Program-made: the position numbers and the translations under genes
In this document: in pieces, positions 3,438-48,845 of the stretch
Layout: each line of letters begins with the position of its first letter
Position numbering within the stretch: the stretch's first letter is position 1
Source: Candidatus Forterrea multitransposorum CG_2015-17_Forterrea_25_41
GTDB lineage: Archaea > Iainarchaeota > Iainarchaeia > Iainarchaeales > CSSED10-239
DNA length: 64,000 bases
Direction: 5' to 3'
Assembly: GCA_009392915.1 (NCBI GenBank)
Contig: CP045477.1
Span: 448,001-512,000 of the forward strand
Notes under the pieces: model-generated
Databases searched by the model: none
The model's input: only the letters and a program-made list of their open reading frames with translations
What the model was told of the DNA's origin: nothing

Positions 3438-4541
3438 TTATCTTGGTCTTTTTGGTCTCTTTATCATTGGGTAACCTTTTGAAGGTTTAATTCTTTTAAG
3501 TTTAAAATCTTTAGAAAATAATCTTTTAAGAAAGCTTTCTTTTTTAACTTTTTGTTTTTCTTTTTTTATTTTTTCTACTTTGTTATTTTCACTAACTTTT
3601 TCTTTTTTAACTTCTTCTTTTGGTCTTAATAATCTTAAATCTTTTTCTTTAATATCTAAAACTTTTTTATTTTTTGTTTTTCCTAAAAGATAATTAATTT
3701 CAATATAAAGACCAGCTTTATTTCTATTTGAAACATTTCTATGAAGATATAGTTCTAATTTTTCATTAGGTGCATAATAAAGAGCATAATTTCCAAAAGG
3801 AATCATTTTTCCATTTTTAGTATGTTCAAAACCAAATTGAACCATAGGCATAAATAAAACTTTTCCTTCTTTTATTTGTGTATGCCCTTGAATGGATAAA
3901 AATTGAGAGGATCTATTATTAGTGTATTTAAGACCAGAAGAATAAACTCCTTCTTGAAATTTAAAATCTAAAATTCCTTCATAACTTGTAATTTTTCCTT
4001 GATCTATTTTTATTGATGCTCCAGCACCTATTTTTTTAGAAGTAACTGAAGATTGTAAAGAGGTTTTATCTAAAGGTTTAATATCTTTTAAAACAAAATT
4101 TGAAATTTCTTTTGAAAAACCAAGTCTTACATCTAAAGGTGTTTTTAAAAGTTTTGATAAATAAAGAGTTGAATAGATTCTTGCAAAAGTTAACTCTGGA
4201 ACTAATTTTCCATTTAAATAAAGATTATTTTTCCCAACTTCAACTGCAAAATTATATTGATTATCTTTTTTAAATTTTTTTCCAAATCTATATTCAAATG
4301 CTTGTTCTATAAATTTTTTAGAAGAAGAATCTGCTTCAAAACCATATGTTTTTGAAGAAAAAACATGTCCTTCTTTATAGATTGTAGGATATAGTTCAGT
4401 TGGGCTTATAAACTGTAAAGATTGAGCAGATATTTTTTGAGAACCAACTATAAGAGATCCAGAAACAGCTAAAGCTGTTAAAATTTTCTTTGGATCTTTT
4501 AAAAAAGATTTAATAAATGTAACTGGTTCTTTAAATTGCAT
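3438..4541 (-). CDS. secreted hypothetical protein (signal peptide, beta-rich, Lys-rich C-terminal tail)
   Basis: N-terminal hydrophobic signal-like segment (ILTALAVSGSLIVGSQKISAQS), alternating hydrophobic pattern, KKEK-rich C-terminus. Confidence 0.35.
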   Translation of the reverse strand: MQFKEPVTFIKSFLKDPKKILTALAVSGSLIVGSQKISAQSLQFISPTELYPTIYKEGHVFSSKTYGFEADSSSKKFIEQAFEYRFGKKFKKDNQYNFAVEVGKNNLYLNGKLVPELTFARIYSTLYLSKLLKTPLDVRLGFSKEISNFVLKDIKPLDKTSLQSSVTSKKIGAGASIKIDQGKITSYEGILDFKFQEGVYSSGLKYTNNRSSQFLSIQGHTQIKEGKVLFMPMVQFGFEHTKNGKMIPFGNYALYYAPNEKLELYLHRNVSNRNKAGLYIEINYLLGKTKNKKVLDIKEKDLRLLRPKEEVKKEKVSENNKVEKIKKEKQKVKKESFLKRLFSKDFKLKRIKPSKGYPMIKRPKRPR

Positions 4542-4724
4542 GATTAATTACTTATTTATATATTATATATAATATATAGAAACAGACATTTAAATATTTA
4601 ATGCTTTATTTTATTAAAAAATAGATATAAATCTTCAAAAATATAATAAATTTAGAAAAAAATAAGAATCAAAACCTTTAAACACTTTCTTACATAATAT
4701 AGTTATTAAGAAAAATTTAGAAGA

Positions 4725-8510: not shown

Positions 8511-8776
8511 GTGTACAGGCACTTACTGGTCGAAAAACAGTTCAAGAAAACATTTAGCTTTATAAAATCTCAAGTCCGCAACCCAAAAAGCATCAAACAC
8601 TTAGGATACTGCTGCTTCCTTCCGGATCTGACAGGGTTTACTAAGATATTCGATCTTAATGGACGAACCGTCAGCAATTTTACAAAGAGTGCCTCCTTGC
8701 TTATTTGCCTTCCAGTAATAATCACTCCGGCTATGTAGATTTCCGGTAACAGGAGACTACAACCCCCCCAGCTAGC
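8511..8776 (-). ncRNA. ffs: signal recognition particle RNA (archaeal 7S-type)
   Basis: GC-rich island in AT-rich DNA; the minus strand carries the universal SRP helix-8 motif CUGUCAGAUCCGGAAGGAAGCAGCAG (compare E. coli 4.5S GUCAGGUCCGGAAGGAAGCAGC with a GGAA tetraloop); length about 270 nt fits archaeal 7S; the ends are approximate. Confidence 0.7.
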
Positions 8777-8884
8777 CTATACAAGTAATTAAAGTGACGA
8801 TACATTTAAAAACACTTTGGACAATATATATAACATAAAAATAATGTATTAATTCACTAAAAAACAAAAAAAGGTGTGTTAATA

Positions 8885-8941: not shown

Positions 8942-10054
8942 ATGAGATCAATTGTATCAAATGCAGTAGAGCACAAATCTGCAGCTGCTGAGAACATAAA
9001 CGTTAAAGACAGCGAATTTGCAGCCCCAAAGATCATGGTTATGGGAATTGGTGGTGCAGGAAATAATTCTGTAAATAGAATCTGTGCAATGGGTGTTGCA
9101 GGTGCACAACTTGTAGCTATTAACACAGATAGACAACACTTAGGTATCATTTCAGATGATATAACAAAATTATTAATTGGAAAATCAGTAACTAATGGTT
9201 TAGGTGCTGGTGCATACCCTGAAATAGGTGCAAAAGCAGCAGAAGTTTCAAAAGCAGCATTAGAAGAAATCTTAGATGGTGTTGACATGCTTTTCATTAC
9301 TGCCGGAATGGGTGGTGGAACAGGAACAGGTGCAGCTCCAGTAGTAGCTCAAATAGCAAAACAACAAGGTGCAATTGTAATGTGTATAGTAACTTATCCT
9401 TTCGCACTTGAAAGAGCACGTTTAATTAAAGCAGAAGAAGGAATTGACCTTTTAAAAGATATTTGTGACACAGTTGTTGTTATTGATAACAATAGACTTG
9501 TTGAATTAGTTCCAAACCTTCCAATGCAAGATGCTTTCAGAGTAGCTGATGAAGTAATTGCAAGAACAGTAAGAGGAATTACAGAAACAATTACTCAACC
9601 TTCATTAATCAACCTTGATTACGCAGACATAAGAACAGTAATGGGTGGTAAAGGATTATCAGTTATCGCTGTTGGTGAATCACAATCTGTTAACAAAGTT
9701 GAAGAAGTTGTTGAAGACACATTAAAGAATGCTCTTTTAGATGTTGATATAACTGGTGCAACAGGTTGTTTAATCCATATTACAGGTGGAACTGAATTAA
9801 CTTTAGGTGAAGCTAACGCTGTTGGTGAAATGTTAACTGACCAAACAGATTCAAATGCAGCTGTTATCTGGGGTGCAAGAATTGATCCTACTTTTGAGAA
9901 TAAAATAGAAGTAATTGCTATTTTCACAGGTGTAAAATCACCATTCATCAAAGGAAGTAAAATGTTTAGAGGAAAAGATTCACCACAAAGCTACAACGGA
10001 AGTGGCAAAGGTGGAAGATCTTACGATGACAACTATGGATTAGATGTTTTATAA
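8942..10054 (+). CDS. ftsZ: cell division GTPase FtsZ (the track start 8933 is a GTG inside the SD; the ATG at 8942 is preferred)
   Basis: Tubulin/FtsZ signature GGGTGTG (MGGGTGTGAAPVVAQ) and an N-terminal GIGGAGNN motif; GC content clearly above the local average. Confidence 0.9.
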   Translation: MRSIVSNAVEHKSAAAENINVKDSEFAAPKIMVMGIGGAGNNSVNRICAMGVAGAQLVAINTDRQHLGIISDDITKLLIGKSVTNGLGAGAYPEIGAKAAEVSKAALEEILDGVDMLFITAGMGGGTGTGAAPVVAQIAKQQGAIVMCIVTYPFALERARLIKAEEGIDLLKDICDTVVVIDNNRLVELVPNLPMQDAFRVADEVIARTVRGITETITQPSLINLDYADIRTVMGGKGLSVIAVGESQSVNKVEEVVEDTLKNALLDVDITGATGCLIHITGGTELTLGEANAVGEMLTDQTDSNAAVIWGARIDPTFENKIEVIAIFTGVKSPFIKGSKMFRGKDSPQSYNGSGKGGRSYDDNYGLDVL

Positions 10055-14774: not shown

Positions 14775-14856
14775 TGCAGGGTACAGGATTCGAACCTGTG
14801 AAGCACTAAGCAATGGATTTTGAGTCCATCCCCTTTGACCGCTCGGGAAACCCTGC
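14775..14856 (-). tRNA. tRNA-Leu (anticodon CAA), class II with long variable arm
   Basis: Manual fold: acceptor GCAGGGU/ACCCUGC, anticodon stem AUGGA/UCCAU, loop CUCAAAA, T-arm ACAGG-UUCGAAU-CCUGU; no encoded CCA. Confidence 0.8.
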
Positions 14857-16963: not shown

Positions 16964-17092
16964 TTTTTTTATTCACCTCGTAACTATAAGTTTAATTAAC
17001 TAATTATTATATAAAAAGATTTAAAAAGAGGAACAAATACTTAGGAAAAAACCTTAAAGAACATTTCTTTTAAAAAATAAAAAAGATTAAAG

Positions 17093-17175
17093 CGCAGAGG
17101 ACGGGATTCGAACCCGTGTAGTCGTGAGACTCTAGCTTAGCAGGCTAGCGCGTTTGACCACTCTGCCACCTCTGC
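17093..17175 (-). tRNA. tRNA-Ser (anticodon GCU), class II
   Basis: Manual fold: acceptor GCAGAGG/CCUCUGC, anticodon stem CUAGC/GCUAG, loop CUGCUAA, long variable arm, T-arm GGGUUCGAAUCCC. Confidence 0.8.
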
Positions 17176-19985: not shown

Positions 19986-20057
19986 GCGCCCCAGGCGGGA
20001 GTCGAACCCGCCCCACAACCTTGACAGGGTCGTATCCTAACCGATAGACTACTGGGG
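19986..20057 (-). tRNA. tRNA-Asp (anticodon GUC)
   Basis: Manual fold: acceptor GCCCCAG/CUGGGGC, anticodon stem CGACC/GGUUG, loop CUGUCAA, T-arm GCGGG-UUCGACU-CCCGC; discriminator G; no CCA. Confidence 0.8.
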
Positions 20058-20174
20058 CTTTTTGTTAAAGATTTTAAATTTATACTAAATAAAATAGTTA
20101 AACTATAAATAAATTAATGCACAAAAACATTTATATTTGTATCTTCTAACAAAATTACATCTAAAAACCATGTA

Positions 20175-20805: not shown

Positions 20806-21510
20806 CTAAACTATATAACTAGATACAAAAAAGATTAAAAGACTTACTGGAAGTAAAAAACATAAATAAATCCAAACTTTCTTTGAATTACTATCAATCT
20901 GTGATAAATAAATTGAAGAAATTATAACATATTCAACTAAATATACAATTGCACAATAATAACTTACAATAAACAAACTAGAATTAGAAGTTAAACCAAC
21001 AACTGAAATATCAACAATTCCAGTTAAACTTTTAACCAAAGAAATTACAACCCCTAAAATCCCAGGAACAATAAAACCACCTGCAAAAAGAATAGTGTAT
21101 TTTTGCATTAAAAGAATTGAAGTTCTTTCATCAAACAATTCTCTTGATTTTAAAAAATCTTTAACTAAATTTTTATAATCTTTAGAAGTAACTGTTCCAG
21201 TAAAAACTGAATATTCTAAAAGATCTAAAAAATTTGAAAGAAAAGAAGAATTATATTTATTTTTTAAAATATTAAACACTTCTTTAGGGGTATGCCCTTT
21301 GTTTATTTTATTTAAAATTAATTTAAATTCAGAAGATATTAATTGATTACTGGAAGATGCAAGCTTTACTAAAATTACTTTTAGATCATTTGTTTTAACA
21401 AACCCAGAGATTCTTAAAACTTCATCAATTAAAGCATCTTCAAATTTCTTTCTCTTAATACTAAAAAAATAATCTCCAAATAAGTAATTTAAATACTTCA
21501 TTAATTTCAT
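20806..21510 (-). CDS. FlaJ/TadC-like (T2SS-F domain) half-protein: cytoplasmic helical domain plus C-terminal TM helices
   Basis: Domain layout and position immediately downstream of the secretion ATPase; weak sequence-level call. Confidence 0.45.
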   Translation of the reverse strand: MKLMKYLNYLFGDYFFSIKRKKFEDALIDEVLRISGFVKTNDLKVILVKLASSSNQLISSEFKLILNKINKGHTPKEVFNILKNKYNSSFLSNFLDLLEYSVFTGTVTSKDYKNLVKDFLKSRELFDERTSILLMQKYTILFAGGFIVPGILGVVISLVKSLTGIVDISVVGLTSNSSLFIVSYYCAIVYLVEYVIISSIYLSQIDSNSKKVWIYLCFLLPVSLLIFFVSSYIV

Positions 21511-21533
21511 AATTAATTAACTCTCATTTTTAT

Positions 21534-22280
21534 TTATGGAAGATTAGCTTTCATTGTTAGGAATATAAACATATCAATTATTGGAAATAAAATAACAATT
21601 ATAAAAATAACAGATAAAGGTGTAAAAGATAATTCTAAAAAATTACTACCAACTAATAAAAACATTAAAAACAAAGCAGGAACAATTGCAGAAACAACAA
21701 TATAGATTAAAGATAAAAGACTTAATTTAGTGGAATAATTTTTAATTAAATAATTTTGTTTTTCAATAATACTTGAAGATAATGTTCTTAAAGATTCAGA
21801 TTTATTTAAAGAACCAGTAGATAAAACATCTTCAATCTGATAAAAAACTCTCTTTAAATCTGAGTTTTCAACACCCACAGAAATAAAAGATTCAGAAAGA
21901 GAATAACCTAAGACATTTACTTTATATAAAACTTTTTTAATAATTTGCCCAATTAAAGAAGAATCAACTCTATTTTCTAAAGCAATTTTTAAAGAAATAT
22001 TCTTATCTAAATCATTTGCAAGGTTATTTAAGAAAAAAGGAATTTCTTTATTTATTTGTCTTTGATGATTTTGAAGCTTAATCTTGTATTTAAAAAAAAT
22101 AATAAAAAAGAACATAAAGAAAAACATAATAAATAAATTAAATAAATAACTATAAGATAAACTAATAACCACTGAATCAATTAATAAAAAAATAATTAAA
22201 ATTATTAAATAGAGAATAATAAATAACAAAAAGTTCTTTCTTGTAAATATTTCTTTCTTTAAAAAAATATAATCAATCAT
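21534..22280 (-). CDS. FlaJ/TadB-like (T2SS-F domain) half-protein; overlaps the ATPase gene by 8 nt
   Basis: N-terminal TMs, central cytoplasmic helical bundle, C-terminal TMs; operon context. Confidence 0.45.
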   Translation of the reverse strand: MIDYIFLKKEIFTRKNFLLFIILYLIILIIFLLIDSVVISLSYSYLFNLFIMFFFMFFFIIFFKYKIKLQNHQRQINKEIPFFLNNLANDLDKNISLKIALENRVDSSLIGQIIKKVLYKVNVLGYSLSESFISVGVENSDLKRVFYQIEDVLSTGSLNKSESLRTLSSSIIEKQNYLIKNYSTKLSLLSLIYIVVSAIVPALFLMFLLVGSNFLELSFTPLSVIFIIVILFPIIDMFIFLTMKANLP

Positions 22281-24036
22281 AATCTTTTCTAATTAATATT
22301 TCATCAATTATTTTTTCTTGTTTCTTATAAACTTTAAGATAATCTTTTTTATTTTTAATATCAAATGCAAATTTTAATTTATCATAGATTTTAATAGAAT
22401 CATTAACTTTAATTAATTTATTTTTATAAATATCAAAATAAAATAAAACATTTAAAGAAATTTTTCCATCTTTATATATAACTTCACAGATTTCAGTAAT
22501 ATTTCTTAAATCAATAGATTTACCTTTTAAATATTTATTATATCTTCTTTGAGTTATAATTAAATCAATTACACCTAAATCAGTTTCTAAAACACCATAT
22601 GACTTAAACCTTAATAGAGCTTCATTAGCACTTTGAGAATGGAAAGTTGTATATGTACCTTTTGCTTGACCACAAAGCATAGATTCAATTAAATATTTTG
22701 ATTCTTCTCTACTTCTAATTTCTCCAATAACAACTCTATCAGGTCTCATTCTTAAAGTGTTTATAACTAAACTTTCAAGATTAATTCCAATCTCAGGATT
22801 TACAAGTGTAAAAACTTTATGTTTATGAGGGATATTTATCTCTCTAACTTCTTCAACAACAACAAATCTTTCATCTAAAGGAACAAAAGAAAGTAAAGTG
22901 TTTAAAGTGGTTGTTTTTCCAGAACCAGTATTTCCAACAACAATTATATTTGAATCTGTTAAAAAACAAAGACTTAAAAAAACTAAAGCTTCTTTTGAAA
23001 CTGTATTAAAAGAGATTAAATCTTTAATTGTAAATGGTTTTTGAGAAAATTTTCTAATAGTAATACAAGCACTTTCAGTTATTGGGTTTATAACTGCATT
23101 AAGTCTTGAATTATCTTTAAGATAAGTATCTAAAATTGGATTTTTTAAAGTAATATATTTATTTGAGTGCCAAGAAAGTTTATTAATTAAATCCCTTATT
23201 ACTTGAGAAGAAGAATAAGAAAGATTACTTTCAAGCCAACCATAATATTTATGATAAACATAAAGTGATTTTCCTTCTCCAATAATTACAATTTCTTCAA
23301 GATAAGGATCTTTTAATATTTCTGTTAATGGTCCATAATTATAAAGATTATTAAAAGAAATATCTATAATATAATTAAATTGATCTTCTTCAAGCTCTAT
23401 GTTATTAACATAACAATAATCAATTAATTCTTTTTCAATATCTTCTTTTATTCTTTCAGTTGAAACTTTTTCAATATATTCTGTTCTAGTTTTATAAGAA
23501 TCTAAAATAAAGTTAATAACTTCAATTTCTTGGATTGAAAGATTTTGATGAAAAATTAAATATCTTTTAGAAGAATCTTTCATTTCAAATACATTTTTAG
23601 AAATATTTCTTAAGATTTCTTTTTTTAAATCTAAAACAACATAACCTAAATATCTATTAAGAATATATTTCTTTTCATCATCAGTAAACTCATCCATTAT
23701 CTTTAATAAAGCAGGATTATTTTTATAACAAAACATAGAAAAAGAACTTAAAGCACATAAATCACATTTATAAGCTTTATTTTTTCTTAAGATAATAGCA
23801 TTATGTGGACAAGCTTTAAGACACTCACCACACCCATCACATTTTTCAGAATCAATTGCTACAACGCCTTTAGAAACATAATAAATAGCATTTTTTTTAC
23901 AAGCTTTAATACAAGGAGCATCTTTACAATTGGTACAATTGAATACACAAGAAGAGTCTTTTTTTGTAAAATTGTAAGGACAATTTAGAAAAACATCTGT
24001 ATCTTTGATAAAATCTTCTGTTTTCTTAAGATACAT
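22273..24036 (-). CDS. FlaI/VirB11/PilB-family secretion ATPase fused to an N-terminal 2x[4Fe-4S] ferredoxin-like domain
   Basis: N-terminus: CTNCKDAPCIKAC and the canonical CDGCGECLKACP (CxxCxxCxxxCP). ATPase core: Walker A VVGNTGSGKTTTLN, Walker B/Glu RPDRVVIGEIRSREE, His box TTFHSQSA. Confidence 0.75.
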   Translation of the reverse strand: MYLKKTEDFIKDTDVFLNCPYNFTKKDSSCVFNCTNCKDAPCIKACKKNAIYYVSKGVVAIDSEKCDGCGECLKACPHNAIILRKNKAYKCDLCALSSFSMFCYKNNPALLKIMDEFTDDEKKYILNRYLGYVVLDLKKEILRNISKNVFEMKDSSKRYLIFHQNLSIQEIEVINFILDSYKTRTEYIEKVSTERIKEDIEKELIDYCYVNNIELEEDQFNYIIDISFNNLYNYGPLTEILKDPYLEEIVIIGEGKSLYVYHKYYGWLESNLSYSSSQVIRDLINKLSWHSNKYITLKNPILDTYLKDNSRLNAVINPITESACITIRKFSQKPFTIKDLISFNTVSKEALVFLSLCFLTDSNIIVVGNTGSGKTTTLNTLLSFVPLDERFVVVEEVREINIPHKHKVFTLVNPEIGINLESLVINTLRMRPDRVVIGEIRSREESKYLIESMLCGQAKGTYTTFHSQSANEALLRFKSYGVLETDLGVIDLIITQRRYNKYLKGKSIDLRNITEICEVIYKDGKISLNVLFYFDIYKNKLIKVNDSIKIYDKLKFAFDIKNKKDYLKVYKKQEKIIDEILIRKDYD

Positions 24037-31290: not shown

Positions 31291-33081
31291 TCATCCATAA
31301 GTAGTTGCTTTAATACTTTTAACTACACCACTTACAAGAACCCAGCCACCCCATTGACCAGTATTTCTGGATGAATTGGTTACAGATAAAGTCCAACCAG
31401 GTTCACTGTCACCAACTTCCCAATATTTACATTTTTTAGAAGAACCAAAAGCTTCTACTTTAATATTATAATTACCAGCAGGAACTTTCCAAGATCCATC
31501 TTTATCAGTTGCAAGTTGTGAACCACCATATTTAAGATATAAACCATCATTTCCATAATCATTAGTTATTGAACAAACATATGAAGCACTTGTTGAAGAA
31601 TAATTAAAAGTGAGACCTGCTTGAGAAGTATCATTTTCAGAAGCTAAACTAACTACTCCTTCTAAAACTAAATTACCTTGTGTACTTAAACCCTGGTAAA
31701 AGAAACCTGCAGAAGACCAAAATTCATTTAATTTAACACCACCACCTGAGAACGCAGGCTGAGCTACAACTGTACCACCTGATTGCGACCAACCAGACAA
31801 ACTAGTAATACTAGTTTGATTTAATAAAACTACAGCAGGAGCTGATAGAACAAGATTAATACTTGAACTTGTTGCTGTTCTTGAAGCACCATCTGTTACA
31901 GTTACTCTAATATATTTTGTACCAGTAGTTGAAAATGAATAAGTTGGATTTGAAACTGAAGTTCCAAAAACAATCCAAGTACTTTGATTTGTACTATATT
32001 CCCAGGAATAATTAGATACTCCAGAAACTGCATTACTTACAGAAGAATTAAAACTTATTGTTTGACCAGTATCATAATTTGTACCAGTTGTTGGAGAAGT
32101 AACACTTACAGCTAAAGGATCACTAATTAAAATATTACTAACAGTATCAGAATAAACTTGATTAATAGGAGAAGGTCTTGAAGCATCTGTAACTAAAACT
32201 CTAAACTCATAAGTCCCACCTGTTGCAAAACCATTTGTTGTAGTATAACTATTAGAACCAAAGTTAGTCCAACCAGTACTGTTTCTATTATACTGCCATT
32301 GATAAGATTTAGTACCAATTGCATTTGAAACACCTACATCAAATATTATTCCTTCACTAAGATTATAAACATCACTTGCATCAGGAGTATAAATAGTTGC
32401 TGTTAATGGAAGAACAACTGTAAAATCTTCACTTGAAGTTGAAATATCTCCAGTTCCAGAATCTGTTACTTTATAATAAATAGTATAGCTTCCTGTTGAA
32501 GATAAAGTTTGAGATAAAGAAGCACAATTAGTACCAACTGCAGTATTAGTATCATTTGAGTTTAATATCCATTCACAAGAAACTGTTGAAACATTATTAT
32601 CATAATTTCCAGTAAATGAAATTGTTTCATTATTATTCCAAGTAGTTCTTGACATTGTAATACTTGAAGATAACAAATCTAAAATATTTATTCCAATTGT
32701 TTGAGAATCACTTGAAGAATCAAAATCATCTAAAGTATCTAATTTAATTGAATAATCATTAAATACTGAAAAAGAATAACTTGTATTACAATCAGTACTA
32801 AAAGATGTAAATGATGGTAAGTCAGCTCTCTTATGACTCCAATTACAAGTTACATTTCCAACATTATTACTATATGAAGAATTAAAATTAATTGTTTTTG
32901 TAACATTATAATTTGATTCTTCTGTTGGATTTAATATTGTTGATGAAAAATCATCAAAAATTTCAACAAATAAATCATCACTAAAAGTTCCTTCATCATC
33001 ATTTGCAATTACTAAAATTTCATAAATTCCAGGAGTTGTAAAAGTATAAGAAATATCACACAAGGTATCTGAAGGATTCAT
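31291..33081 (-). CDS. S/T-rich, beta-rich repeat (PKD/Ig-like) surface adhesin-like domain; lacks its own signal peptide. The frame continues upstream through 46 sense codons to a single TAA that terminates the pilin-like ORF
   Basis: ORF track plus manual frame check (see findings); composition SSYSN, TGT, repeated roughly 90-aa modules. Confidence 0.5.
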   Translation of the reverse strand: MNPSDTLCDISYTFTTPGIYEILVIANDDEGTFSDDLFVEIFDDFSSTILNPTEESNYNVTKTINFNSSYSNNVGNVTCNWSHKRADLPSFTSFSTDCNTSYSFSVFNDYSIKLDTLDDFDSSSDSQTIGINILDLLSSSITMSRTTWNNNETISFTGNYDNNVSTVSCEWILNSNDTNTAVGTNCASLSQTLSSTGSYTIYYKVTDSGTGDISTSSEDFTVVLPLTATIYTPDASDVYNLSEGIIFDVGVSNAIGTKSYQWQYNRNSTGWTNFGSNSYTTTNGFATGGTYEFRVLVTDASRPSPINQVYSDTVSNILISDPLAVSVTSPTTGTNYDTGQTISFNSSVSNAVSGVSNYSWEYSTNQSTWIVFGTSVSNPTYSFSTTGTKYIRVTVTDGASRTATSSSINLVLSAPAVVLLNQTSITSLSGWSQSGGTVVAQPAFSGGGVKLNEFWSSAGFFYQGLSTQGNLVLEGVVSLASENDTSQAGLTFNYSSTSASYVCSITNDYGNDGLYLKYGGSQLATDKDGSWKVPAGNYNIKVEAFGSSKKCKYWEVGDSEPGWTLSVTNSSRNTGQWGGWVLVSGVVKSIKATTYG

Positions 33082-33219
33082 TCTTACTTGTGATCCACCT
33101 GCAATTGTATGATACCATTCACAAGAAACACTTCCTCTTTGATAAAGTGTATCAGTTTCAAAAGAAACAGAAGTGTTTACTCTGAATGAATCAAAATTTG
33201 TAACATTTGAAAAGAAAAT

Positions 33220-33744
33220 TTAAGAAGATGGAAGTTCTACAGCACATTTTCTTAAATCAATTGTTTTTTTAGGACAAGTAGAGTTTGATAAAGTAAAAAC
33301 CTTTAAATCTAAAGGATCAATTATTTCTCCAGAATCAACATTAATATCAGAATTTACAATTGTAAAATCAGTTGTTGATTTTAATTTTTTAATTTCTCCA
33401 GATAAAATAGGATTATCAAAATTACCATACATTTTTAGAACATTTGAAGAATTTTGAGAAGTTCCTTGAATATTTAAAGAAAGATTATAAAAATCAATAG
33501 GGGTTGGGTTTCTTAATAAAACTTCAATATTTCCAGTAGTTGAATCAAGATTACAAGATTCTACAACTAAATTATACTTAATACAATCCATTCTAGAAAC
33601 TTCTTGTAATTGATCTTGTGAAACATCTAATTTTTCTCTAACAGATGTTTTTGACCAAGATAAAAATCCTGCAACTAAAACAGCTGTTACCAAGATTAAT
33701 AAAACTACAGAAATTATTGCCGAAATTGATTTTTTTCTATTCAT
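33220..33744 (-). CDS. type IV pilin-like protein (class III signal peptide); probably the N-terminal part of a pilin-adhesin fusion
   Basis: MNRKKS|ISAIISVVLLILVTAVLVAGFLSW: basic residues, a small residue at -1, a hydrophobic helix (archaeal prepilin signature); in frame with the downstream adhesin ORF. Confidence 0.55.
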   Translation of the reverse strand: MNRKKSISAIISVVLLILVTAVLVAGFLSWSKTSVREKLDVSQDQLQEVSRMDCIKYNLVVESCNLDSTTGNIEVLLRNPTPIDFYNLSLNIQGTSQNSSNVLKMYGNFDNPILSGEIKKLKSTTDFTIVNSDINVDSGEIIDPLDLKVFTLSNSTCPKKTIDLRKCAVELPSS

Positions 33745-34178: not shown

Positions 34179-35330
34179 TCACACTTTTTTTTTTAAACTT
34201 ACCCTATATAAAATAACAAAATCAATATCAGATTTTCTAATCTCAAAATCAAAAAATACAGCATCTGGTACAAAAATAGCATACTCTGCACAAGAAAGAC
34301 CACATTCACTTTGATCAAAAGGTAAAAAATATAGATTATTACTATATGTTTTATCTAGAATATATTTAGAACTAATAGATTTTAAAGCAATGACTTCAGA
34401 AATATTTACTTGTTCTAGCTGATTACGATTCATATAGGTAATAGTGTCAATTAAAACACTCTCAGCATCTGGTTTTGGAACAGCAATTTGAAAGATTAAA
34501 ATTGTAAATATAAAAAATATGAAAATATATTTGATAAAATTAAAACTACTTTCTTCTTTTATTGCAAACATTATAAAAGAAATAAAGATAGAAAGAACAA
34601 TTGCCATATAAAGAAGGAAATTATCAAAAAATATTCTTGTTATTAAATCTTGATCTGCATACCATAAAAAATTATTACCTAGTATAATATTTATGAATAA
34701 AATTACAACTAAAAAGATTACAAATAAAACAATGGATAAATAATATAAATTTAAAAAATATTTTTTCTTTTGTGTTTCTTCTTTAAAAATAGAAATATCT
34801 TTTGAAATATTTAAAAGAACTCTATCAAGAGGTATAGAACTTTCTTTAAAAGTCTTTAACAATATTAAAGTGTGAGTGATTATTGGACTTTTAATAGTCT
34901 CATTAATACCTGATAAAGCATTTTCAAAATCATCTCCCCAAGAAACTCTATTTGCTATTCTTTTTATTTCTGTATCAATTGAACCATAAACATTTGATGT
35001 TGTGATATTGTTTAATGATATTGATAAATTATTTGTAGATTTATACTCTCTCGATAAATCTTGTAAAAAGAATGTAAAAGAAGTTTCAATTGCTTTCTTT
35101 TTAAAGTGTTTTAAAACATATTCTAAAACAAAACCTAAAAAACTTACGAAAAAACCAAAAAAGAAAACTGCATAGTATAATTCAGTATGAAGAAAATATT
35201 TATTTGATAAATGAACAATTAAAAGACCAGATAAAATACTTGCAAGAATTAATATTTGGTATTCATAATTATAAATTAATAGTTTTAATTTAATATTCAT
35301 TTTATCTAAAAATTTATTTTTTTCTATCAT
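34179..35330 (-). CDS. FlaJ/TadC-like polytopic membrane protein (T2SS-F-like half)
   Basis: TM helices flanking a cytoplasmic helical region; operon context. Confidence 0.4.
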   Translation of the reverse strand: MIEKNKFLDKMNIKLKLLIYNYEYQILILASILSGLLIVHLSNKYFLHTELYYAVFFFGFFVSFLGFVLEYVLKHFKKKAIETSFTFFLQDLSREYKSTNNLSISLNNITTSNVYGSIDTEIKRIANRVSWGDDFENALSGINETIKSPIITHTLILLKTFKESSIPLDRVLLNISKDISIFKEETQKKKYFLNLYYLSIVLFVIFLVVILFINIILGNNFLWYADQDLITRIFFDNFLLYMAIVLSIFISFIMFAIKEESSFNFIKYIFIFFIFTILIFQIAVPKPDAESVLIDTITYMNRNQLEQVNISEVIALKSISSKYILDKTYSNNLYFLPFDQSECGLSCAEYAIFVPDAVFFDFEIRKSDIDFVILYRVSLKKKV

Positions 35331-35346
35331 TTAAAAATCAATCTCT

Positions 35347-36189
35347 TCATTTATATAAAATCCCAATTAATACAAATTCAATTACTGCAAATATTATTGA
35401 AAAAATCAACAATGATTCTTTTAATAAAAAATAATCTGTAAAAGTTATAAAAAATATTATTAAAATAACAATAAAAAAGAAAAATAAAAATATTGACATT
35501 AAAAATAAAATATTAATTCTACTTTTCTTTTGTTCACTTAACTCTCTTTTAGATTGTTCTAAATTAGTTAAGAAATCAAGAATAACTTGATTTAAGTCTT
35601 CTTTTTGATCAATAACTTCAATTAATTTTCTAAAGAAGTTTTTTTCAACTTCAGAATATGTTTCAGAAATTATTGATTTAAAAGTATCTTTAAGATTATG
35701 ATTTCTTTTATTTAAAGCAATTATTTTCTTTGCTTCTCTGCTTAATATATCATTATTTTCTAAGTTTTCAAAAACATTCAATACATCTTTAATAGTTAGA
35801 TTTTCATCTCTTAAAACAGATAAATGTTTTATAGATCTTTGAAATTCACTACCAATTTCTTTTTTTATATTATTTAAAATAAAAAAAGGATATTTAAATA
35901 AAAGTAAAAAAATCATAAAAGCAAAAGTAAAAGAAATAAAAATAGTTATAAAAAAACTAAAAAGATTAAACAATATTCCAAGTCTAATCATTAAATAAAT
36001 AAAAGCAAACTCTATAACTATTAAAAAAAATATAGAAATAAAAGAAATATTTGAAATATAACTAATAGAATCTTCATTGATACCAGTATATTCTAAAACT
36101 CTATCAAAATTTTTAAAAGTACCTTTAAATTGCATAACAATATCTTTTAAGAAAAATAAAGATATACTTGTTAAGAATTTACTAAACAT
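35347..36189 (-). CDS. FlaJ/TadB-like polytopic membrane protein (T2SS-F-like half)
   Basis: N-terminal TMs, cytoplasmic helical domain (EIGSEFQRSIKHLSVLRDENLTIKDVLNVF), C-terminal TMs; starts 7 nt after the upstream stop. Confidence 0.4.
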   Translation of the reverse strand: MFSKFLTSISLFFLKDIVMQFKGTFKNFDRVLEYTGINEDSISYISNISFISIFFLIVIEFAFIYLMIRLGILFNLFSFFITIFISFTFAFMIFLLLFKYPFFILNNIKKEIGSEFQRSIKHLSVLRDENLTIKDVLNVFENLENNDILSREAKKIIALNKRNHNLKDTFKSIISETYSEVEKNFFRKLIEVIDQKEDLNQVILDFLTNLEQSKRELSEQKKSRINILFLMSIFLFFFFIVILIIFFITFTDYFLLKESLLIFSIIFAVIEFVLIGILYK

Positions 36190-36196
36190 ATTTTTT

Positions 36197-39100
36197 TCAC
36201 TTTATATCGAGTCTTTTAAACAACTCGTCCTTTTCATAATTATATTGAGAGATAATACTATTAAAATCTTTGTAATTGTATACTTTTGAATCCTTCATCC
36301 ATCTCATAAGTTTCTTTTTCTTTAAAAAATCAACAACATTTATTGAAGAAGATAAAAGATTAATATTGTATTTATTTTCGGATATTTCTAAATCTACAAC
36401 TACACTTTCATTTTTATTAATTATTTCTTTAATATTTACAATTTGATAAGTTTCTTTAAAACCTTGTTTAATTCTTTTAATTTCTATTAGAATAGATTTT
36501 TGATTAACCATTTTTAATTGTTCAATAAATTTATCAGCAACATTTGGTTTTATTGAAAAGATATTTAAGTTATACCAAGAAACATCAAAAATATCTTCTC
36601 CAAACTCATCAATTGCAATAATATCTGGTTTCTGAGAAATTGTTTGTTCAATAATTAAACGTTTACTTAAATCTGCATTATTTGTAAAAATTCTATTAAT
36701 CCATTCTTTTTGAGGAAGTTTAAATCTATCGTATGCCTGAACAGTTATAATTTTCTGATCAGGATAAAATAAAAGTATAGAATTATAAATTACAAAAGAA
36801 TCATCAACATCATGTAAAATAACTTTATAGTTTTCTGAAATTGCAGACCAGATATATGAAAATACATCTACAGAACCAATAGATGTATTAACTAAAGCAA
36901 CAGGTGTTAATGGTTCATCAAGATATTTTTTAATTACAAAAGAAGAACCTTTACTACTAGTATCTCCTAAAGAATAAAGACCTTCAACTTTATAACCATT
37001 AGGTAAATATCCATCAATCACAGGATGTTCTGGAGTTATATAGATACCCATATTTTTAGTTAAAATAGTTACAAAGTTATTTAACTCAATAATATCTTTA
37101 AAACTAATATTTGTTTTTAAAACACCATACTCTACATGGTAAACTATAAGATTTGATTTTTCACCAGAACAACTAACTTCAATTATTTTTTTATCAAGTA
37201 AAAGATTAGTTAAAATACCTAACCCAAAAAATTCTCTTTGAATAAATTTAAGATAAAGTTTTTGTTGTAATTTACCTAAACTATAAGATAATTTTTCAAC
37301 AGAAATATCAAATATTTTTTGAATATATTTATCAAGACTATGTTTATCTCCATTAAAAGAATAATAGTTTTTATCGATTGTATTAAAAAATACTTTTTTT
37401 AATTGAATATATTCTTTTTCTTGTTCACTATTAAGTTCTGGTTGTACTAAATTATAGAAAAGACCTTTAGTATTATCATAATGTATTGTAACATATGTAA
37501 AATCATCTATAGAATATTTATCAAAAATATTTTTTATATTTTCTTCAAATGAAGCAATAGGATCTTGATACACTAAAGAAGAAAATAGAGAATTGTCAGA
37601 AGATAATTTTTCTTGATATATTTCTTTATTTATTTTAACAGGATTTTTTCCAGCATCTTTTGGAAGGATATAATCCATACCTTTTTCTCTTAAGTCTTTA
37701 AATTTTTCTGCAATTAAATCATTTTTAACTTTCGGAGTTAATTTTACTTCTTTGATAATTTTAATTTCTTGTTCTTTTGGTAATGATTCTTTTTTAATTG
37801 TTTTAGATATTTTTTCATCATCATTATCTTCATCAGAATAATTCTCTTTTGAAGTAACTTTTTCTTCTCTTATAGAAGGAGAAATATATTTTTTATTTTT
37901 GTTTGAAATTTTAGATTTATCTTTTTTATTTTTAGGAGAAGAAATTTCTCTCATACCTTTATATATTCTTTCATCATCTTCTTTAGATAAATCAACATCA
38001 GAAAATACTTTTTTAACATCTTCTTCATCTTTATCTATTTTCTCATTTAAAACATTAACATCAAATTTTTCTTTTTCTTTTTCTTCTAAAGTTTTTGATT
38101 TTTTTAATTTAGAAATATTATTTTCAATTTCAGAATTTAATTTTACTTGATTATTATCAATTACAAAATTTGGTGTTTTTTCAGAAGATTCATTTGTTTT
38201 AATTTCAGAAGATAAAGAAGAATCTTCATTTAAAACTTTTAAATCATTTTTTGAATCTTTATCATATACAGAAAACTTATCTTCAACAGTGTTAGATAAA
38301 TCTTTAACATCATCTTCAATTGCAAAAATATCTGGAACTTCAATTTCTTCAAATAAACCATTAGCCTCACCTAAAGAAGAATTATTTAAATGAGAACTAG
38401 AATTTTTAGAATCTATTTCTAAATTACCTGTGTTTTTAGGAAAATCATTTGAATTTGCTAAAGTTTCTTTATTTTGAGAATCTTTATTTTTATTTACAGA
38501 TAAATGATCTATTTTTGAATATAAATTTTTAACATCATACTTTGGAAAATCAATTTTACTTTTTTTAGGTTTATCATCTAAAAAAGAAAATGATTCTAAA
38601 TAAACTTCTTGATCAAGTTTACTTGCTTTTTTATTTAATTGATCTAATAAATCATCTACATTTTCATTTTTTGATTTTACTTCTGAAAAAATATCATTTG
38701 ATTCTTTACTTTCAGAATATTCTTTTGGTTTAGATACATTTTCTAAAATATCTTTCAAAAGAGACATGGTTTTTTTATTATTATTTGATTCATCAAAATT
38801 TATTTCTTTTTTAATTGAATTATCAATATGATCTATTTTAGGCTCACTTATTAAAAATGAATTTGAAGGTTTTATTTTTTTTTCAGAAGATGAATCCGAA
38901 AGTAGTAGTTCATGAGATGAATCAGGGAGTAATAATTCATTATTAATTTTTGATGAAATTAATTTATTAGATGTTGATTTTTTATCAACTTTATCTAAAG
39001 GAACTTCTTTTTTAAAAATATTAGAATTATCAACCTTATCTAAAGGAACTTCTTTTTTAGAAATATTAGAATTATCAACTTTATCTAAAGGAACTTCTTT

Positions 39101-39547
39101 TTTAGAAATATTAGAATTATCAACTTTATCTAAAGGAACTTCTTTTTTAGAAATATTAGAATTATCAACTTTATCTAAAGGAACTTCTTTTTTAGAAATA
39201 TCTAAATTATCAACTTTATCTAAAAGAATCTTTTTTTTTCTAAAAGGATTAAAATCTTTATATTTTTCTTCAATATCAGAAGTGTCAACTTTTAAGTTTA
39301 CTTTCTTAACATCATTATAATTTTTATTTAAAGAAAAATCATCTTTTTTAGTTTCTGGTAAAACTACATCAAATTTTTGTAATTTTTTAGAATTACTATT
39401 ATTTTTTAAAGAACTATCAATTTTATCTTCTTTTAAAGAACTATCAAATTTATTATTTTTTACAGAATCTGAAGCTTTAGATATAGATTTAGATAGAGGA
39501 ATTCTTTTAATAACCTTAAAACCAGAAAAATTATCCTCTCCACCCAT
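36197..39547 (-). CDS. giant FlaI/PilB-like pseudo-ATPase: roughly 650-aa disordered K/D/S/E-rich N-terminal region with 5x DKVDNSNISKKEVPL repeats, plus a C-terminal FlaI N-domain and a degenerate ATPase domain with no P-loop
   Basis: C-terminal half aligns with the active ATPase at 22273-24036 (LLLDKKIIEVSCSGEKSNLIVYHVEYGVLKTNISF vs ILKDPYLEEIVIIGEGKSLYVYHKYYGWLESNLSY), but Walker A GNTGSGKTT is replaced by HDVDDSFVI and Walker B RPDRVVIGEIRSREE by KPDIIAIDEFGEDI. Confidence 0.6.
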   Translation of the reverse strand: MGGEDNFSGFKVIKRIPLSKSISKASDSVKNNKFDSSLKEDKIDSSLKNNSNSKKLQKFDVVLPETKKDDFSLNKNYNDVKKVNLKVDTSDIEEKYKDFNPFRKKKILLDKVDNLDISKKEVPLDKVDNSNISKKEVPLDKVDNSNISKKEVPLDKVDNSNISKKEVPLDKVDNSNIFKKEVPLDKVDKKSTSNKLISSKINNELLLPDSSHELLLSDSSSEKKIKPSNSFLISEPKIDHIDNSIKKEINFDESNNNKKTMSLLKDILENVSKPKEYSESKESNDIFSEVKSKNENVDDLLDQLNKKASKLDQEVYLESFSFLDDKPKKSKIDFPKYDVKNLYSKIDHLSVNKNKDSQNKETLANSNDFPKNTGNLEIDSKNSSSHLNNSSLGEANGLFEEIEVPDIFAIEDDVKDLSNTVEDKFSVYDKDSKNDLKVLNEDSSLSSEIKTNESSEKTPNFVIDNNQVKLNSEIENNISKLKKSKTLEEKEKEKFDVNVLNEKIDKDEEDVKKVFSDVDLSKEDDERIYKGMREISSPKNKKDKSKISNKNKKYISPSIREEKVTSKENYSDEDNDDEKISKTIKKESLPKEQEIKIIKEVKLTPKVKNDLIAEKFKDLREKGMDYILPKDAGKNPVKINKEIYQEKLSSDNSLFSSLVYQDPIASFEENIKNIFDKYSIDDFTYVTIHYDNTKGLFYNLVQPELNSEQEKEYIQLKKVFFNTIDKNYYSFNGDKHSLDKYIQKIFDISVEKLSYSLGKLQQKLYLKFIQREFFGLGILTNLLLDKKIIEVSCSGEKSNLIVYHVEYGVLKTNISFKDIIELNNFVTILTKNMGIYITPEHPVIDGYLPNGYKVEGLYSLGDTSSKGSSFVIKKYLDEPLTPVALVNTSIGSVDVFSYIWSAISENYKVILHDVDDSFVIYNSILLFYPDQKIITVQAYDRFKLPQKEWINRIFTNNADLSKRLIIEQTISQKPDIIAIDEFGEDIFDVSWYNLNIFSIKPNVADKFIEQLKMVNQKSILIEIKRIKQGFKETYQIVNIKEIINKNESVVVDLEISENKYNINLLSSSINVVDFLKKKKLMRWMKDSKVYNYKDFNSIISQYNYEKDELFKRLDIK
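38991..39230 (-). repeat. five near-perfect 45-nt tandem repeats (unit TTATCTAAAGGAACTTCTTTTTTAGAAATATTAGAATTATCAAC), in-frame within the pseudo-ATPase gene
   Basis: Seen directly; encodes (DKVDNSNISKKEVPL)x5. Confidence 0.9.
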
Positions 39548-39630: not shown

Positions 39631-40362
39631 TCAAATAACAAAAGAAATAATTTTTGGAATAATTTCAAAAACATATAAAAGAATTAGAAAGATATAACTT
39701 ACTAGGATTAATATAATAAATGGAATTAAAGGAGAAAACCACACCTTAGAAATATTATGATTTTTAGCAATAACTTTAATTTTTTTAATTTCATTTTCTG
39801 GTTCAATATTTGGCATAAAAACAATTTTTGAAATTAATTTATTATTTTCTACATACAATTTTTCTAAAGGAGTATAAAAATTATTTACTTTTTTTAAAGA
39901 TAAAGGAACCCCTAAAAACATTAGATATAATGATTTAAAAAAATTATATTTAGGAAAATTTCTTGAAAATAAATTATATAAAAATAAGAAAACAGGTATA
40001 AGTAAAGTTAAAACTAAAGCAAAAAAGAAAATAAACATTGGAAAATATATATCAAAAATATTTGTAAATGATATTGCAAAAATAGTATAAAGATCCCCTT
40101 CTCCTATATATGTAAAATAACTAATCTTTCCTAAAACATAAAAAATTAATAAAAATATAAAACTTACAGCAAGTTGTATTAAATAACCTTTCCATAAAAT
40201 AAAATCTGTTTTAAAAACAAAAATACCTAAATAAAGAATACTAAAGATGGCTAAGAAAAATAAAGACATTATATTTATTTCTCTATACTTAATATCTTGA
40301 TAAGTTACATACAATAAAATAATTATAGAAAAAATAATTATTGGTAAATAAATATAATCCAT
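39631..40362 (-). CDS. A24-family prepilin/preflagellin peptidase (FlaK/PibD-like)
   Basis: Polytopic; first catalytic Asp in YQDIKYREINI, second in IGEGDLYT (a GxGDxK-like motif). Confidence 0.55.
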   Translation of the reverse strand: MDYIYLPIIIFSIIILLYVTYQDIKYREINIMSLFFLAIFSILYLGIFVFKTDFILWKGYLIQLAVSFIFLLIFYVLGKISYFTYIGEGDLYTIFAISFTNIFDIYFPMFIFFFALVLTLLIPVFLFLYNLFSRNFPKYNFFKSLYLMFLGVPLSLKKVNNFYTPLEKLYVENNKLISKIVFMPNIEPENEIKKIKVIAKNHNISKVWFSPLIPFIILILVSYIFLILLYVFEIIPKIISFVI

Positions 40363-48589: not shown

Positions 48590-48770
48590 ATTTATTTTCT
48601 CCTATATTCTTTAAATTTAAAATAAAAAAAGTTGTTATTAAAGTTATAATATTTTAAACAATATACATAAGATGTAATACAAACAGTGTATAAAGTGGCT
48701 TATTTTAAGAAAACAAACAAAAATTAGAAAATAATAAAATATTTAATATAAATTGTAAAATAAATTAAAG

Positions 48771-48845
48771 CAGACCGAGTGGGATTTGAACCCACGATCC
48801 CAAGCTTAGGAGGCTTGTGCGTTATCCTGACTACGCTACCGGCCT
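48771..48845 (-). tRNA. tRNA-Arg (anticodon CCU)
   Basis: Manual fold: D-arm GCGU/ACGC, anticodon stem CAAGC/GCUUG, loop CUCCUAA, T-arm GUGGG-UUCAAAU-CCCAC, acceptor AGGCCGG/UCGGUCU with two G-U pairs. Confidence 0.7.

Follow-up and report, generated by a model that had tools for sequence, protein, structure and literature searches.

A probable young in-frame minisatellite in the predicted disordered linker of a Walker-A-less FlaI/GspE paralogue from an Iainarchaeota archaeon

The stretch analyzed here, called the window, comprises 64,000 nucleotides of Candidatus Forterrea multitransposorum (contig CP045477.1, positions 448,001 to 512,000 of the forward strand), and coordinates refer to it unless another locus is named. 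Its minus strand carries a gene for a protein related to the FlaI/ArlI and GspE ATPases, and the first part of this gene contains a tandem array of 45-nt units. The window has about 23% GC, contains an archaeal signal recognition particle (SRP) RNA and is an exact match to a 663-kb contig of the Joint Genome Institute (JGI); it belongs to an archaeon whose nearest named relatives are Candidatus Iainarchaeum/Diapherotrites metagenome-assembled genomes (MAGs) of the DPANN group. The host gene and the parts of the array are the following.

36197-39547, minus strand: host gene, encoding a 1116-aa FlaI/ArlI/GspE-like protein without a P-loop, in a type-IV-filament-like locus.
38982-39239, minus strand: whole 45-nt tandem array; its five full units are preceded at the 5' end by a degenerate half-match of 16 nt and followed at the 3' (gene) end by a partial unit of 17 nt.
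39179-39223, minus strand: unit A, first in gene order, TTAGATAAAGTTGATAATTTAGATATTTCTAAAAAAGAAGTTCCT, encoding LDKVDNLDISKKEVP (residues 109-123), three mismatches to the core.
39044-39178 (39134-39178, 39089-39133 and 39044-39088), minus strand: units B1-B3, each TTAGATAAAGTTGATAATTCTAATATTTCTAAAAAAGAAGTTCCT, encoding LDKVDNSNISKKEVP (residues 124-168), no mismatches.
38999-39043, minus strand: unit C, the last full unit, encoding LDKVDNSNIFKKEVP (residues 169-183), two mismatches.
38982-38998, minus strand: partial sixth unit of 17 nt, TTAGATAAAGTTGATAA, encoding LDKVD and followed by unique sequence (KKSTSNKL...).

Tandem Repeats Finder (TRF) reported one outstanding array in the window (38982-39239, period 45, 5.7 copies, 96% matches, score 463). 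The runner-up array in the 64 kb scored 107, and in 30 dinucleotide-preserving shuffles the best score per shuffle ranged from 48 to 101, so the head-to-tail copies lie far beyond chance expectation. Searching with the consensus 45-nt unit and allowing up to three mismatches gave five matches within 38999-39223, all on the minus strand, and none in 100 shuffles; at the same tolerance no dispersed copies were found elsewhere in the window. Units B1-B3 are 100% identical to one another in DNA and are enclosed in a perfectly periodic stretch of 166 nt (39036-39201). Unit C differs from the core by one synonymous change (AAA to AAG) and by one that replaces S with F, and substitutions between units are mostly non-synonymous (four of the five changed nucleotides in altered codons). 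Unit A can be recognized by the markers TTTAGAT and AATTTAGAT, and unit C by AAGG/ATTTTT, GATAAGG and ATTTTTAAA. The unit length is divisible by three (45 nt = 15 codons) and the complete array is in frame in the open reading frame (ORF) 36197-39547, where residues 109-188 correspond to one A unit, three B units, one C unit and the partial unit. An earlier inspection of the letters alone (the sequence-only reading) had described five near-identical 45-nt copies on the minus strand, with at most one or two mismatches per copy, spanning 38991-39230. TRF and the unit matches bear out the copies and the strand, with the correction that the unit as typed there had 44 nt, one T having been dropped; the mismatch limit holds for four copies (0-2) and fails for one edge copy, which has three; and the span covers 5.3 units of the array in a register shifted by 8 nt from that of the codons.

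The sister lineage (P0002, P0003, L012, L020 and L021; 82% amino acid identity) has no array at the homologous place. There its sequence reads ...RKKEVSLENEKKKVDLSNSYLKENSLEKVNSVDKINDVKETKPDISKKASFEKDSLKS... and contains a degenerate single-copy counterpart, KVDLSNSYLKENSLE followed by KVNS, which amounts to about 1.3 degenerate copies of the unit KVDNSNISKKEVPLD, suggesting that the window lineage amplified a pre-existing segment. The three identical units, together with the absence of the array from the sister lineage, indicate a recent, lineage-specific origin, in agreement with the very recent expansion that had been proposed from the window by itself. Arrays with turnover by slippage or unequal exchange commonly have identical units in the interior and diverged ones at the edges. 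There is no sign that the array came from a virus or a mobile element: an exact-pattern scan of viral_contigs did not detect the array unit or its junction, and the same scan of metagenome_contigs and genome_contigs, collections that evidently do not include this genome, gave no flank or junction match and hence no additional alleles. The ratio of non-synonymous to synonymous substitution rates (dN/dS) over the array, 1.27, was discarded as an indication of positive selection because this segment aligns unreliably to the sister lineage and the value is uninterpretable.

Members of the 90%-identity cluster of the window protein are identical outside the array and differ in the units that they contain. 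Source samples include JGI 3300007985, 3300008009, 3300025997 and 3300025841, the runs behind ENA ERZ27293361, ERZ27293364 and ERZ22297736, and GCA_009993905, GCA_009993835, GCA_009994485 and GCA_009994275. The DNA of each allele was compared (loci L001-L010), which confirmed the unit strings listed here.

ABBBC, 1116 aa: 26 contigs, 28 index blocks.
ABBC, 1101 aa: P0011, 11 contigs.
ABBB, 1101 aa: P0001, 1 contig.
A-B-A-C', 1101 aa: P0012, 1 contig.
ABC, 1086 aa: P0016, 4 contigs, MEGAHIT k141.
AC, 1071 aa: P0013, 1 contig.

The flanks of L001-L010 are identical to the window over 10.3 kb upstream (left) and 12.8 kb downstream (right), except for one single-nucleotide polymorphism (SNP) in L009 and a 2-nt difference at the contig end in L005. 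Over these 23 kb of a near-clonal population, variation is thus apparently confined to the array. Comparison of strains and bins, which the sequence-only reading had recommended, thus reveals two, three, four and five units and no single count in public assemblies, and the length variation that it had anticipated is supported by close genomes with matching flanks, with the reservation that all of them are short-read assemblies. Four of the five variant alleles can be reached from ABBBC by one in-register deletion; A-B-A-C' cannot. In the A-B-A-C' array (L007, 10325-10504, GCA_009994485.1) the third unit is of the A type and the fourth is a B/C chimera, which reflects either gene conversion between units or an error of assembly or curation.

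We consider it moderately probable that these copy-number differences are a real population polymorphism and not assembly error. According to a competing explanation, which we hold to be rather unlikely, the array is real with a copy number fixed at five or possibly more, and the "alleles" of two to five copies are artefacts that arose when a repeat longer than the read was assembled from short reads by de Bruijn graphs, or through bubble popping, scaffolding or manual curation. Several points weigh against polymorphism and in favor of such artefacts. Every allele comes from a short-read assembly, and the periodic stretch of 166 nt is longer than a 150-nt read. Both ABBC and a hypothetical ABBBBC are spelled by the k-mers of ABBBC up to k=122, so that five and four copies are inseparable below k=123 and reads of 150 nt do not by themselves fix even the count of the window. 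Each variant allele is a contraction, an outcome that assembly collapse would give too, and A-B-A-C', which takes two or more events, comes from a single assembly. Seven contigs of SPAdes scaffolds (for example L011, coverage 11) carry a run of 100 N inside the array, and the alleles partly follow the assembly pipeline, with ABC coming from MEGAHIT and gaps from SPAdes. Moreover, the identical flanks may mean that some assemblies are re-assemblies of the same or sister samples.

Other observations are difficult to reconcile with a fixed copy number. Relative to ABBBC, novel k-mers are needed above k=77 for ABC, k=34 for ABBB, k=32 for AC and k=20 for A-B-A-C', and these k-mers argue for real reads behind the three-copy, two-copy, ABBB and mosaic alleles. 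MEGAHIT k141 assembled the ABC allele into contigs that measure 42 and 216 kb, from at least two ENA assemblies, and variant alleles are not restricted to poor assemblies, since several are located on contigs with lengths of 0.2-0.7 Mb. The window gene also contains two shorter in-frame arrays.

38888-38940, minus strand: second mini-array, 27 nt x 2.0, (N)ELLLPDSSHELLLSDSS, in frame; three copies of its unit in sister strain L021.
39397-39467, minus strand: third mini-array, 27 nt x 2.6, KFDSSLKEDKIDSSLKNN, in frame; absent in the sister lineage (9-aa alignment gap).

Among the sister strains L012, L020 and L021, which share 97-98% DNA identity, two mini-arrays of the same spacer show clean 27-nt in-register indels (SFEKDSLKS present once or twice, ELLLPDSSN twice or three times). 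These mini-arrays span at most 81 nt and are consequently fully resolved by reads, which argues that the locus slips in nature. Runs of about 100 N also stand at arrays in SPAdes scaffolds of L011 (about 9577-9678, the 45-nt array) and L014 (about 4470-4570, the 27-nt SFEKDSLKS duplication, low coverage). Such gaps lead to split or truncated public gene calls (856 aa; 915 aa, "partial"), and P0015, an 856-aa call starting at Met261 in gapped scaffolds, results from the N-gap in the array.

Arrays are also found in this spacer in more distant orthologues. L017, an orthologue of 844 aa that has lost Walker A and is 43% identical in the C-terminal domain, has an independent array of 90 nt x 2.6 with 93% matches in the equivalent spacer, with the 30-aa unit EPKPSESFRKKDPETKPKTEKSFKKTLKKK, and P0008/L018 has a perfect array of 15 nt x 3.7. 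The units are unrelated between lineages (SFEKDSLKS, ELLLPDSSN, EPKPSESFRKK..., NKNLN). In all 24 TRF rows that lie inside orthologous ORFs the period is divisible by three, as expected if frame-breaking arrays are purged.

The region of the protein in which these arrays occur has the following features.

37598-39547, minus strand: N-terminal extension, residues 1-650, low-complexity, variable and indel-rich, with few conserved islands.
39482-39526, minus strand: N-terminal motif SGFKVIKRIPLSKSI (residues 8-22), conserved and in frame with the array that follows it.

The extension consists of 18.6% K, 10.9% D, 9.4% E, 12.9% S and 10.2% N, with 40% charged residues and neither Trp nor Cys. Within the array 42% of the residues are charged, a proline occurs every 15 residues and a single Phe is the only aromatic residue; the unit LDKVDNSNISKKEVP has a net charge of 0 and one proline. 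An AlphaFold2 (AF2) model built on an eight-sequence alignment (A1) gave predicted local distance difference test (pLDDT) values below 50 throughout residues 1-297 and of 23-27 in the array, with no helix or strand in residues 1-238, the array included. The model is weak (mean pLDDT 38.6), and low pLDDT alone is no proof of disorder, which weakens the case for a disordered linker. Composition, AF2 model and indel-rich evolution taken together nevertheless suggest that the spacer is disordered, and the earlier idea that in-frame 15-aa units lengthen a disordered spacer accordingly finds indirect support in pLDDT, lacking secondary structure and composition. A structured protein repeat (coiled coil, solenoid or beta-repeat) was also considered and rejected, as no helix or strand is predicted in the (weak, eight-sequence) model and a proline recurs in every 15 residues.

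The conserved islands of the extension in alignment A1 are FKVIKRIPLSKSI (residues 8-22), FNPF, LESFSFLDDKPK...YDVKNLYSKID, LFEEIEVPDIFAIEDD, PNFVID and DYILPKD, and the array is positioned in the most variable spacer between them. Orthologues whose overall identity to the window protein is 47-85% retain the N-terminal motif, as do L016 and L019; P0008 (39% identity) has no aligned counterpart of it. As this motif is conserved and in frame upstream of the array, it indicates that the extension, and with it the array, is translated. Residues 1-650 show a dN/dS of 0.50 against the sister lineage, indicating that constraint on the extension is relaxed. With only the N-terminal 277 residues as protein query, there was no match at E<=1e-3, probably as a consequence of low-complexity filtering. 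A further FlaI-like protein, P0009 (938 aa, JGI, 22% identity), combines an intact P-loop with a K/E-rich low-complexity N-terminal extension of about 450 aa, so that long disordered N-extensions on FlaI-type proteins are not confined to inactive paralogues.

The remaining part of the host protein, residues from about 650 to 1116, pairs with the N-terminal domain and the start of the C-terminal domain of FlaI and Archaeoglobus fulgidus GspE. Profile matches to PDB entries support this homology of the N-terminal and ATPase domains (A. fulgidus GspE 2oap, 4e-40; FlaI 4ii7/4ihq, about 1e-27). Curated family thresholds are not reached: NCBIfam FlaI (NF058587) matches residues 668-955 with E=1.9e-30 and 106 bits, far below the family cutoff of 550, and no Pfam family, T2SSE included, was detected in the protein at E<=0.01. 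The nucleotide-binding motifs are affected in the following position.

36791-36814, minus strand: degenerate Walker A position, HDVDDSFV where FlaI/GspE have GxxxSGKT.

In the hidden Markov model (HMM) alignment to 2oap, GEtaSGKTT is placed opposite "dedds..f" (HDVDDSFV), and the Walker A P-loop pattern GxxGxGK[ST] is absent not only here but from all orthologues P0001-P0008 and L017 (39-99% identity); P0009 and the paralogue encoded at 22273-24036 of the window have it intact. The acidic residue of Walker B (hhhhGE) is not conserved either, orthologues reading IDEF, VDEF, VDHF, VDYF, LDVF and VDNF, and the PDB ATPase homology match ends at the Walker B position. Residues 651-1116 have a dN/dS of 0.04 against the 82% sister lineage, a sign of strong purifying selection. 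The sequence-only reading had called the protein a pseudo-ATPase, and the replacement of Walker A by HDVDDSFV makes this a fair label. Judged by these alignments, the host is a conserved, predicted non-catalytic FlaI/GspE paralogue and no decaying gene; it would descend from FlaI/GspE ATPases and, failing the P-loop test, should not be filed as an ATPase. The pseudo-ATPase family is kept across Iainarchaeota/Diapherotrites MAGs, with motifs such as DGYLPNGYKVEG...GSSFVIKKY invariant, and such retention suggests a non-catalytic structural or regulatory role. In the literature searched, no description of this family was found, and DPANN type IV pili combined with inactive ATPase gave nothing specific. 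Between the window gene and its sister (36197-39547 against L012 10001-13243), synonymous divergence (dS) is 0.11 in the C-terminal domain and 0.34 in the N-terminal extension, a threefold difference that might stem from codon constraint, from effects of the alignment or from exchange of the domain between lineages by recombination.

The genes next to the host gene make up a type-IV-filament-like locus.

39631-40362, minus strand: A24 prepilin/preflagellin peptidase gene, directly upstream (Pfam Arc_PepC_II, 5.8e-10, and Peptidase_A24; NCBIfam FlaK, 1.3e-7).
35347-36189 and 34179-35330, minus strand: two FlaJ/T2SSF-like membrane platform ORFs, directly downstream (Pfam T2SSF, 2.1e-9; precomputed T2SSF annotation on both).

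Beyond the platform genes, a DUF192 gene, a pilin-like ORF and a PKD-like ORF are located further downstream. In place of the two window ORFs at 31291-33744 (a 174-aa pilin-like ORF and a 596-aa PKD-like ORF), the sister lineage has a single 814-aa ORF with a faint PKD_4 match (L012, 15669-18113), so close lineages differ in what are putatively the genes for filament or adhesin at this locus. A second type-IV-filament module is present at 20806-24036 (minus strand). It contains a 587-aa FlaI/GspE-like ATPase (22273-24036, minus strand) in which Walker A (GNTGSGKTT) and Walker B (VVIGEIR) are both intact and which has a Cys-rich N-terminal extension that resembles a 2x[4Fe-4S] ferredoxin, followed by two FlaJ-like membrane ORFs (21534-22280 and 20806-21510). 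By these motifs, the genome pairs a predicted competent ATPase with the paralogue that lacks Walker A, and a separate split platform protein accompanies each of the two. The window also contains genes for SRP RNA and for tRNA Leu-CAA, Ser-GCT, Asp-GTC and Arg-CCT (8512-8783, minus strand, 14775-14856, 17092-17175, 19986-20058 and 48770-48845); there is nothing unusual about them, and they confirm that the DNA is from an archaeal chromosome.

With good confidence, we interpret the feature as a young in-frame coding minisatellite, or variable-number tandem repeat (VNTR), of 45-nt (15-codon) units in a disordered linker, driven by slippage or recombination and probably near-neutral. It would have originated by amplification, in the window lineage, of a segment of the disordered polyampholytic N-terminal spacer. 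Whole units would then be gained or lost by slippage during replication or by unequal homologous recombination of identical units, the interior units staying homogenized and the two edge units diverging. Each event would lengthen or shorten the protein by 15 residues and keep the frame because 45 is divisible by three. The outcome would be a longer or shorter flexible tether that connects the N-terminal motif (residues 8-22) to the remaining protein, and not an on/off switch. The length changes appear to be near-neutral, since different lineages do not share unit sequences and most substitutions between units are non-synonymous.

A different explanation would see in the 15-mer a functional short linear motif, for example a site for a partner in the pilus machinery, whose copy number is selected for avidity or valency or as bet-hedging in a clonal episymbiont. 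The recurrence of arrays in the same spacer of several orthologues, the heterogeneity of copy number against otherwise invariant flanks and the precedent of tolA, in which repeat number alters phenotype (PMC3477136), are compatible with it. We regard this explanation as unlikely, given that the arrays of the orthologues have unrelated units, that the 82% sister lineage lives without an array, that four of the five changed nucleotides between units lie in altered codons, and that unit identity at the DNA level points to youth and not to selection at the protein level. A related proposal is equally doubtful, namely that selection for a disordered, multivalent tether of adjustable length, on a non-catalytic FlaI paralogue that scaffolds or regulates the type-IV-filament machine in Iainarchaeota, has left the recurrent lineage-specific arrays as its trace; if it were true, fast turnover of 15-residue modules would create heterogeneity (bet-hedging) in filament assembly or host attachment within a clonal population with a genome of about 0.66 Mb. 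It is very improbable that the array is untranslated, with the true start at a downstream Met and the repeat acting as a DNA-level or non-coding element (regulatory repeat, iteron, CRISPR-like array or mobile remnant): one gene caller did start at Met261 in gapped scaffolds and the extension has no Pfam domain, but that 856-aa call stems from the N-gap, the frame is open for 650 codons (chance about 1e-28 in DNA of about 21% GC, by our own estimate), the N-terminal motif upstream is conserved in frame in most orthologues, every array period in orthologous ORFs is divisible by three, the array has no Rfam match and no plus-strand ORF of at least 60 aa, and the unit is absent from viral contigs.

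Further candidates were rejected. The units abut without spacers, lie in a coding frame and have no Rfam match, which does not correspond to a CRISPR array. The lack of an Rfam match and of a plus-strand ORF of at least 60 aa also eliminates a non-coding RNA and a plus-strand gene. Frame-shifting phase variation is incompatible with a unit divisible by three, all alleles being in frame and full-length (1071-1116 aa).

By itself, the array that we interpret as a young coding minisatellite is an ordinary one, and in-frame intragenic repeats are already known in bacteria. If its variation is real, it offers a ready marker for strains and time series, as apparently the sole variable site in 23 kb of an invariant DPANN population, and a rare view of slipped-strand or recombinational mutation in an uncultivated archaeon with a reduced genome. 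Its copy number is uncertain in any short-read assembly, the window included, and this is why public records of the gene range from 856 to 1116 aa. The host family is the more intriguing lead, with a Walker-A-less FlaI paralogue, a disordered extension that spawns arrays and an intact paralogue alongside.

Several known systems can be compared with this locus. The FlaI/ArlI and GspE ATPases (4ihq/4ii7, 2oap) are homologous to residues from about 650 to 1116, and the position of the gene between those for an A24 peptidase and FlaJ-like proteins fits them; the host protein differs from them in the absent Walker A, the unconserved Walker B Glu, the missing Pfam T2SSE match and the low-complexity extension of about 650 aa. 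In phase-variable contingency loci, as described by the Moxon-type model, simple sequence repeats (SSRs) with units of 1-8 nt shift the reading frame or promoter spacing and thereby switch expression on or off. Like these, the array is an intragenic tract that would be hypermutable by slipped-strand mispairing and would cause heterogeneity in clonal populations; unlike these, its 45-nt unit keeps the frame and only length would be modulated. In Legionella pneumophila, 7 of 26 intragenic repeats are polymorphic between strains and have been used as strain markers (Coil et al., 2008, PMC2639597). They too are genome-encoded and intragenic, and a subset of them varies in copy number; unlike the present array, they are bacterial, many belong to proteins associated with the surface or with virulence, and polymerase chain reaction (PCR) and sequencing across strains confirmed them.

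The closest functional analogue may be the repeat tract of tolA in E. coli, in which 13 imperfect in-frame units of 15/18 bp form part of linker domain II (Zhou, Michiels & Aertsen, 2012, PMC3477136). Copy number there ranges from 8 to 16 among 234 isolates, RecA-dependent contractions occur at 6.9e-5, and the phenotype depends on copy number (PMC3477136). The tolA tract forms a long periplasmic alpha-helix, whereas the present spacer is predicted to be disordered and cytoplasmic; the units here are of 45 bp, nearly perfect, two to five in number and from an uncultivated archaeon; and a phenotype has been shown for tolA, whereas variation here is deduced from metagenome assemblies and not from PCR of isolates. 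In both cases, short units with a length that is a multiple of three are arranged head to tail in an ORF and keep its frame, and in both they occupy a connecting or spacer region, not the catalytic domain, of a protein of a cell-envelope machine. Copy number differs among close relatives in tolA, as it probably does here, and the changes in tolA have been attributed to slippage or RecA-dependent recombination.

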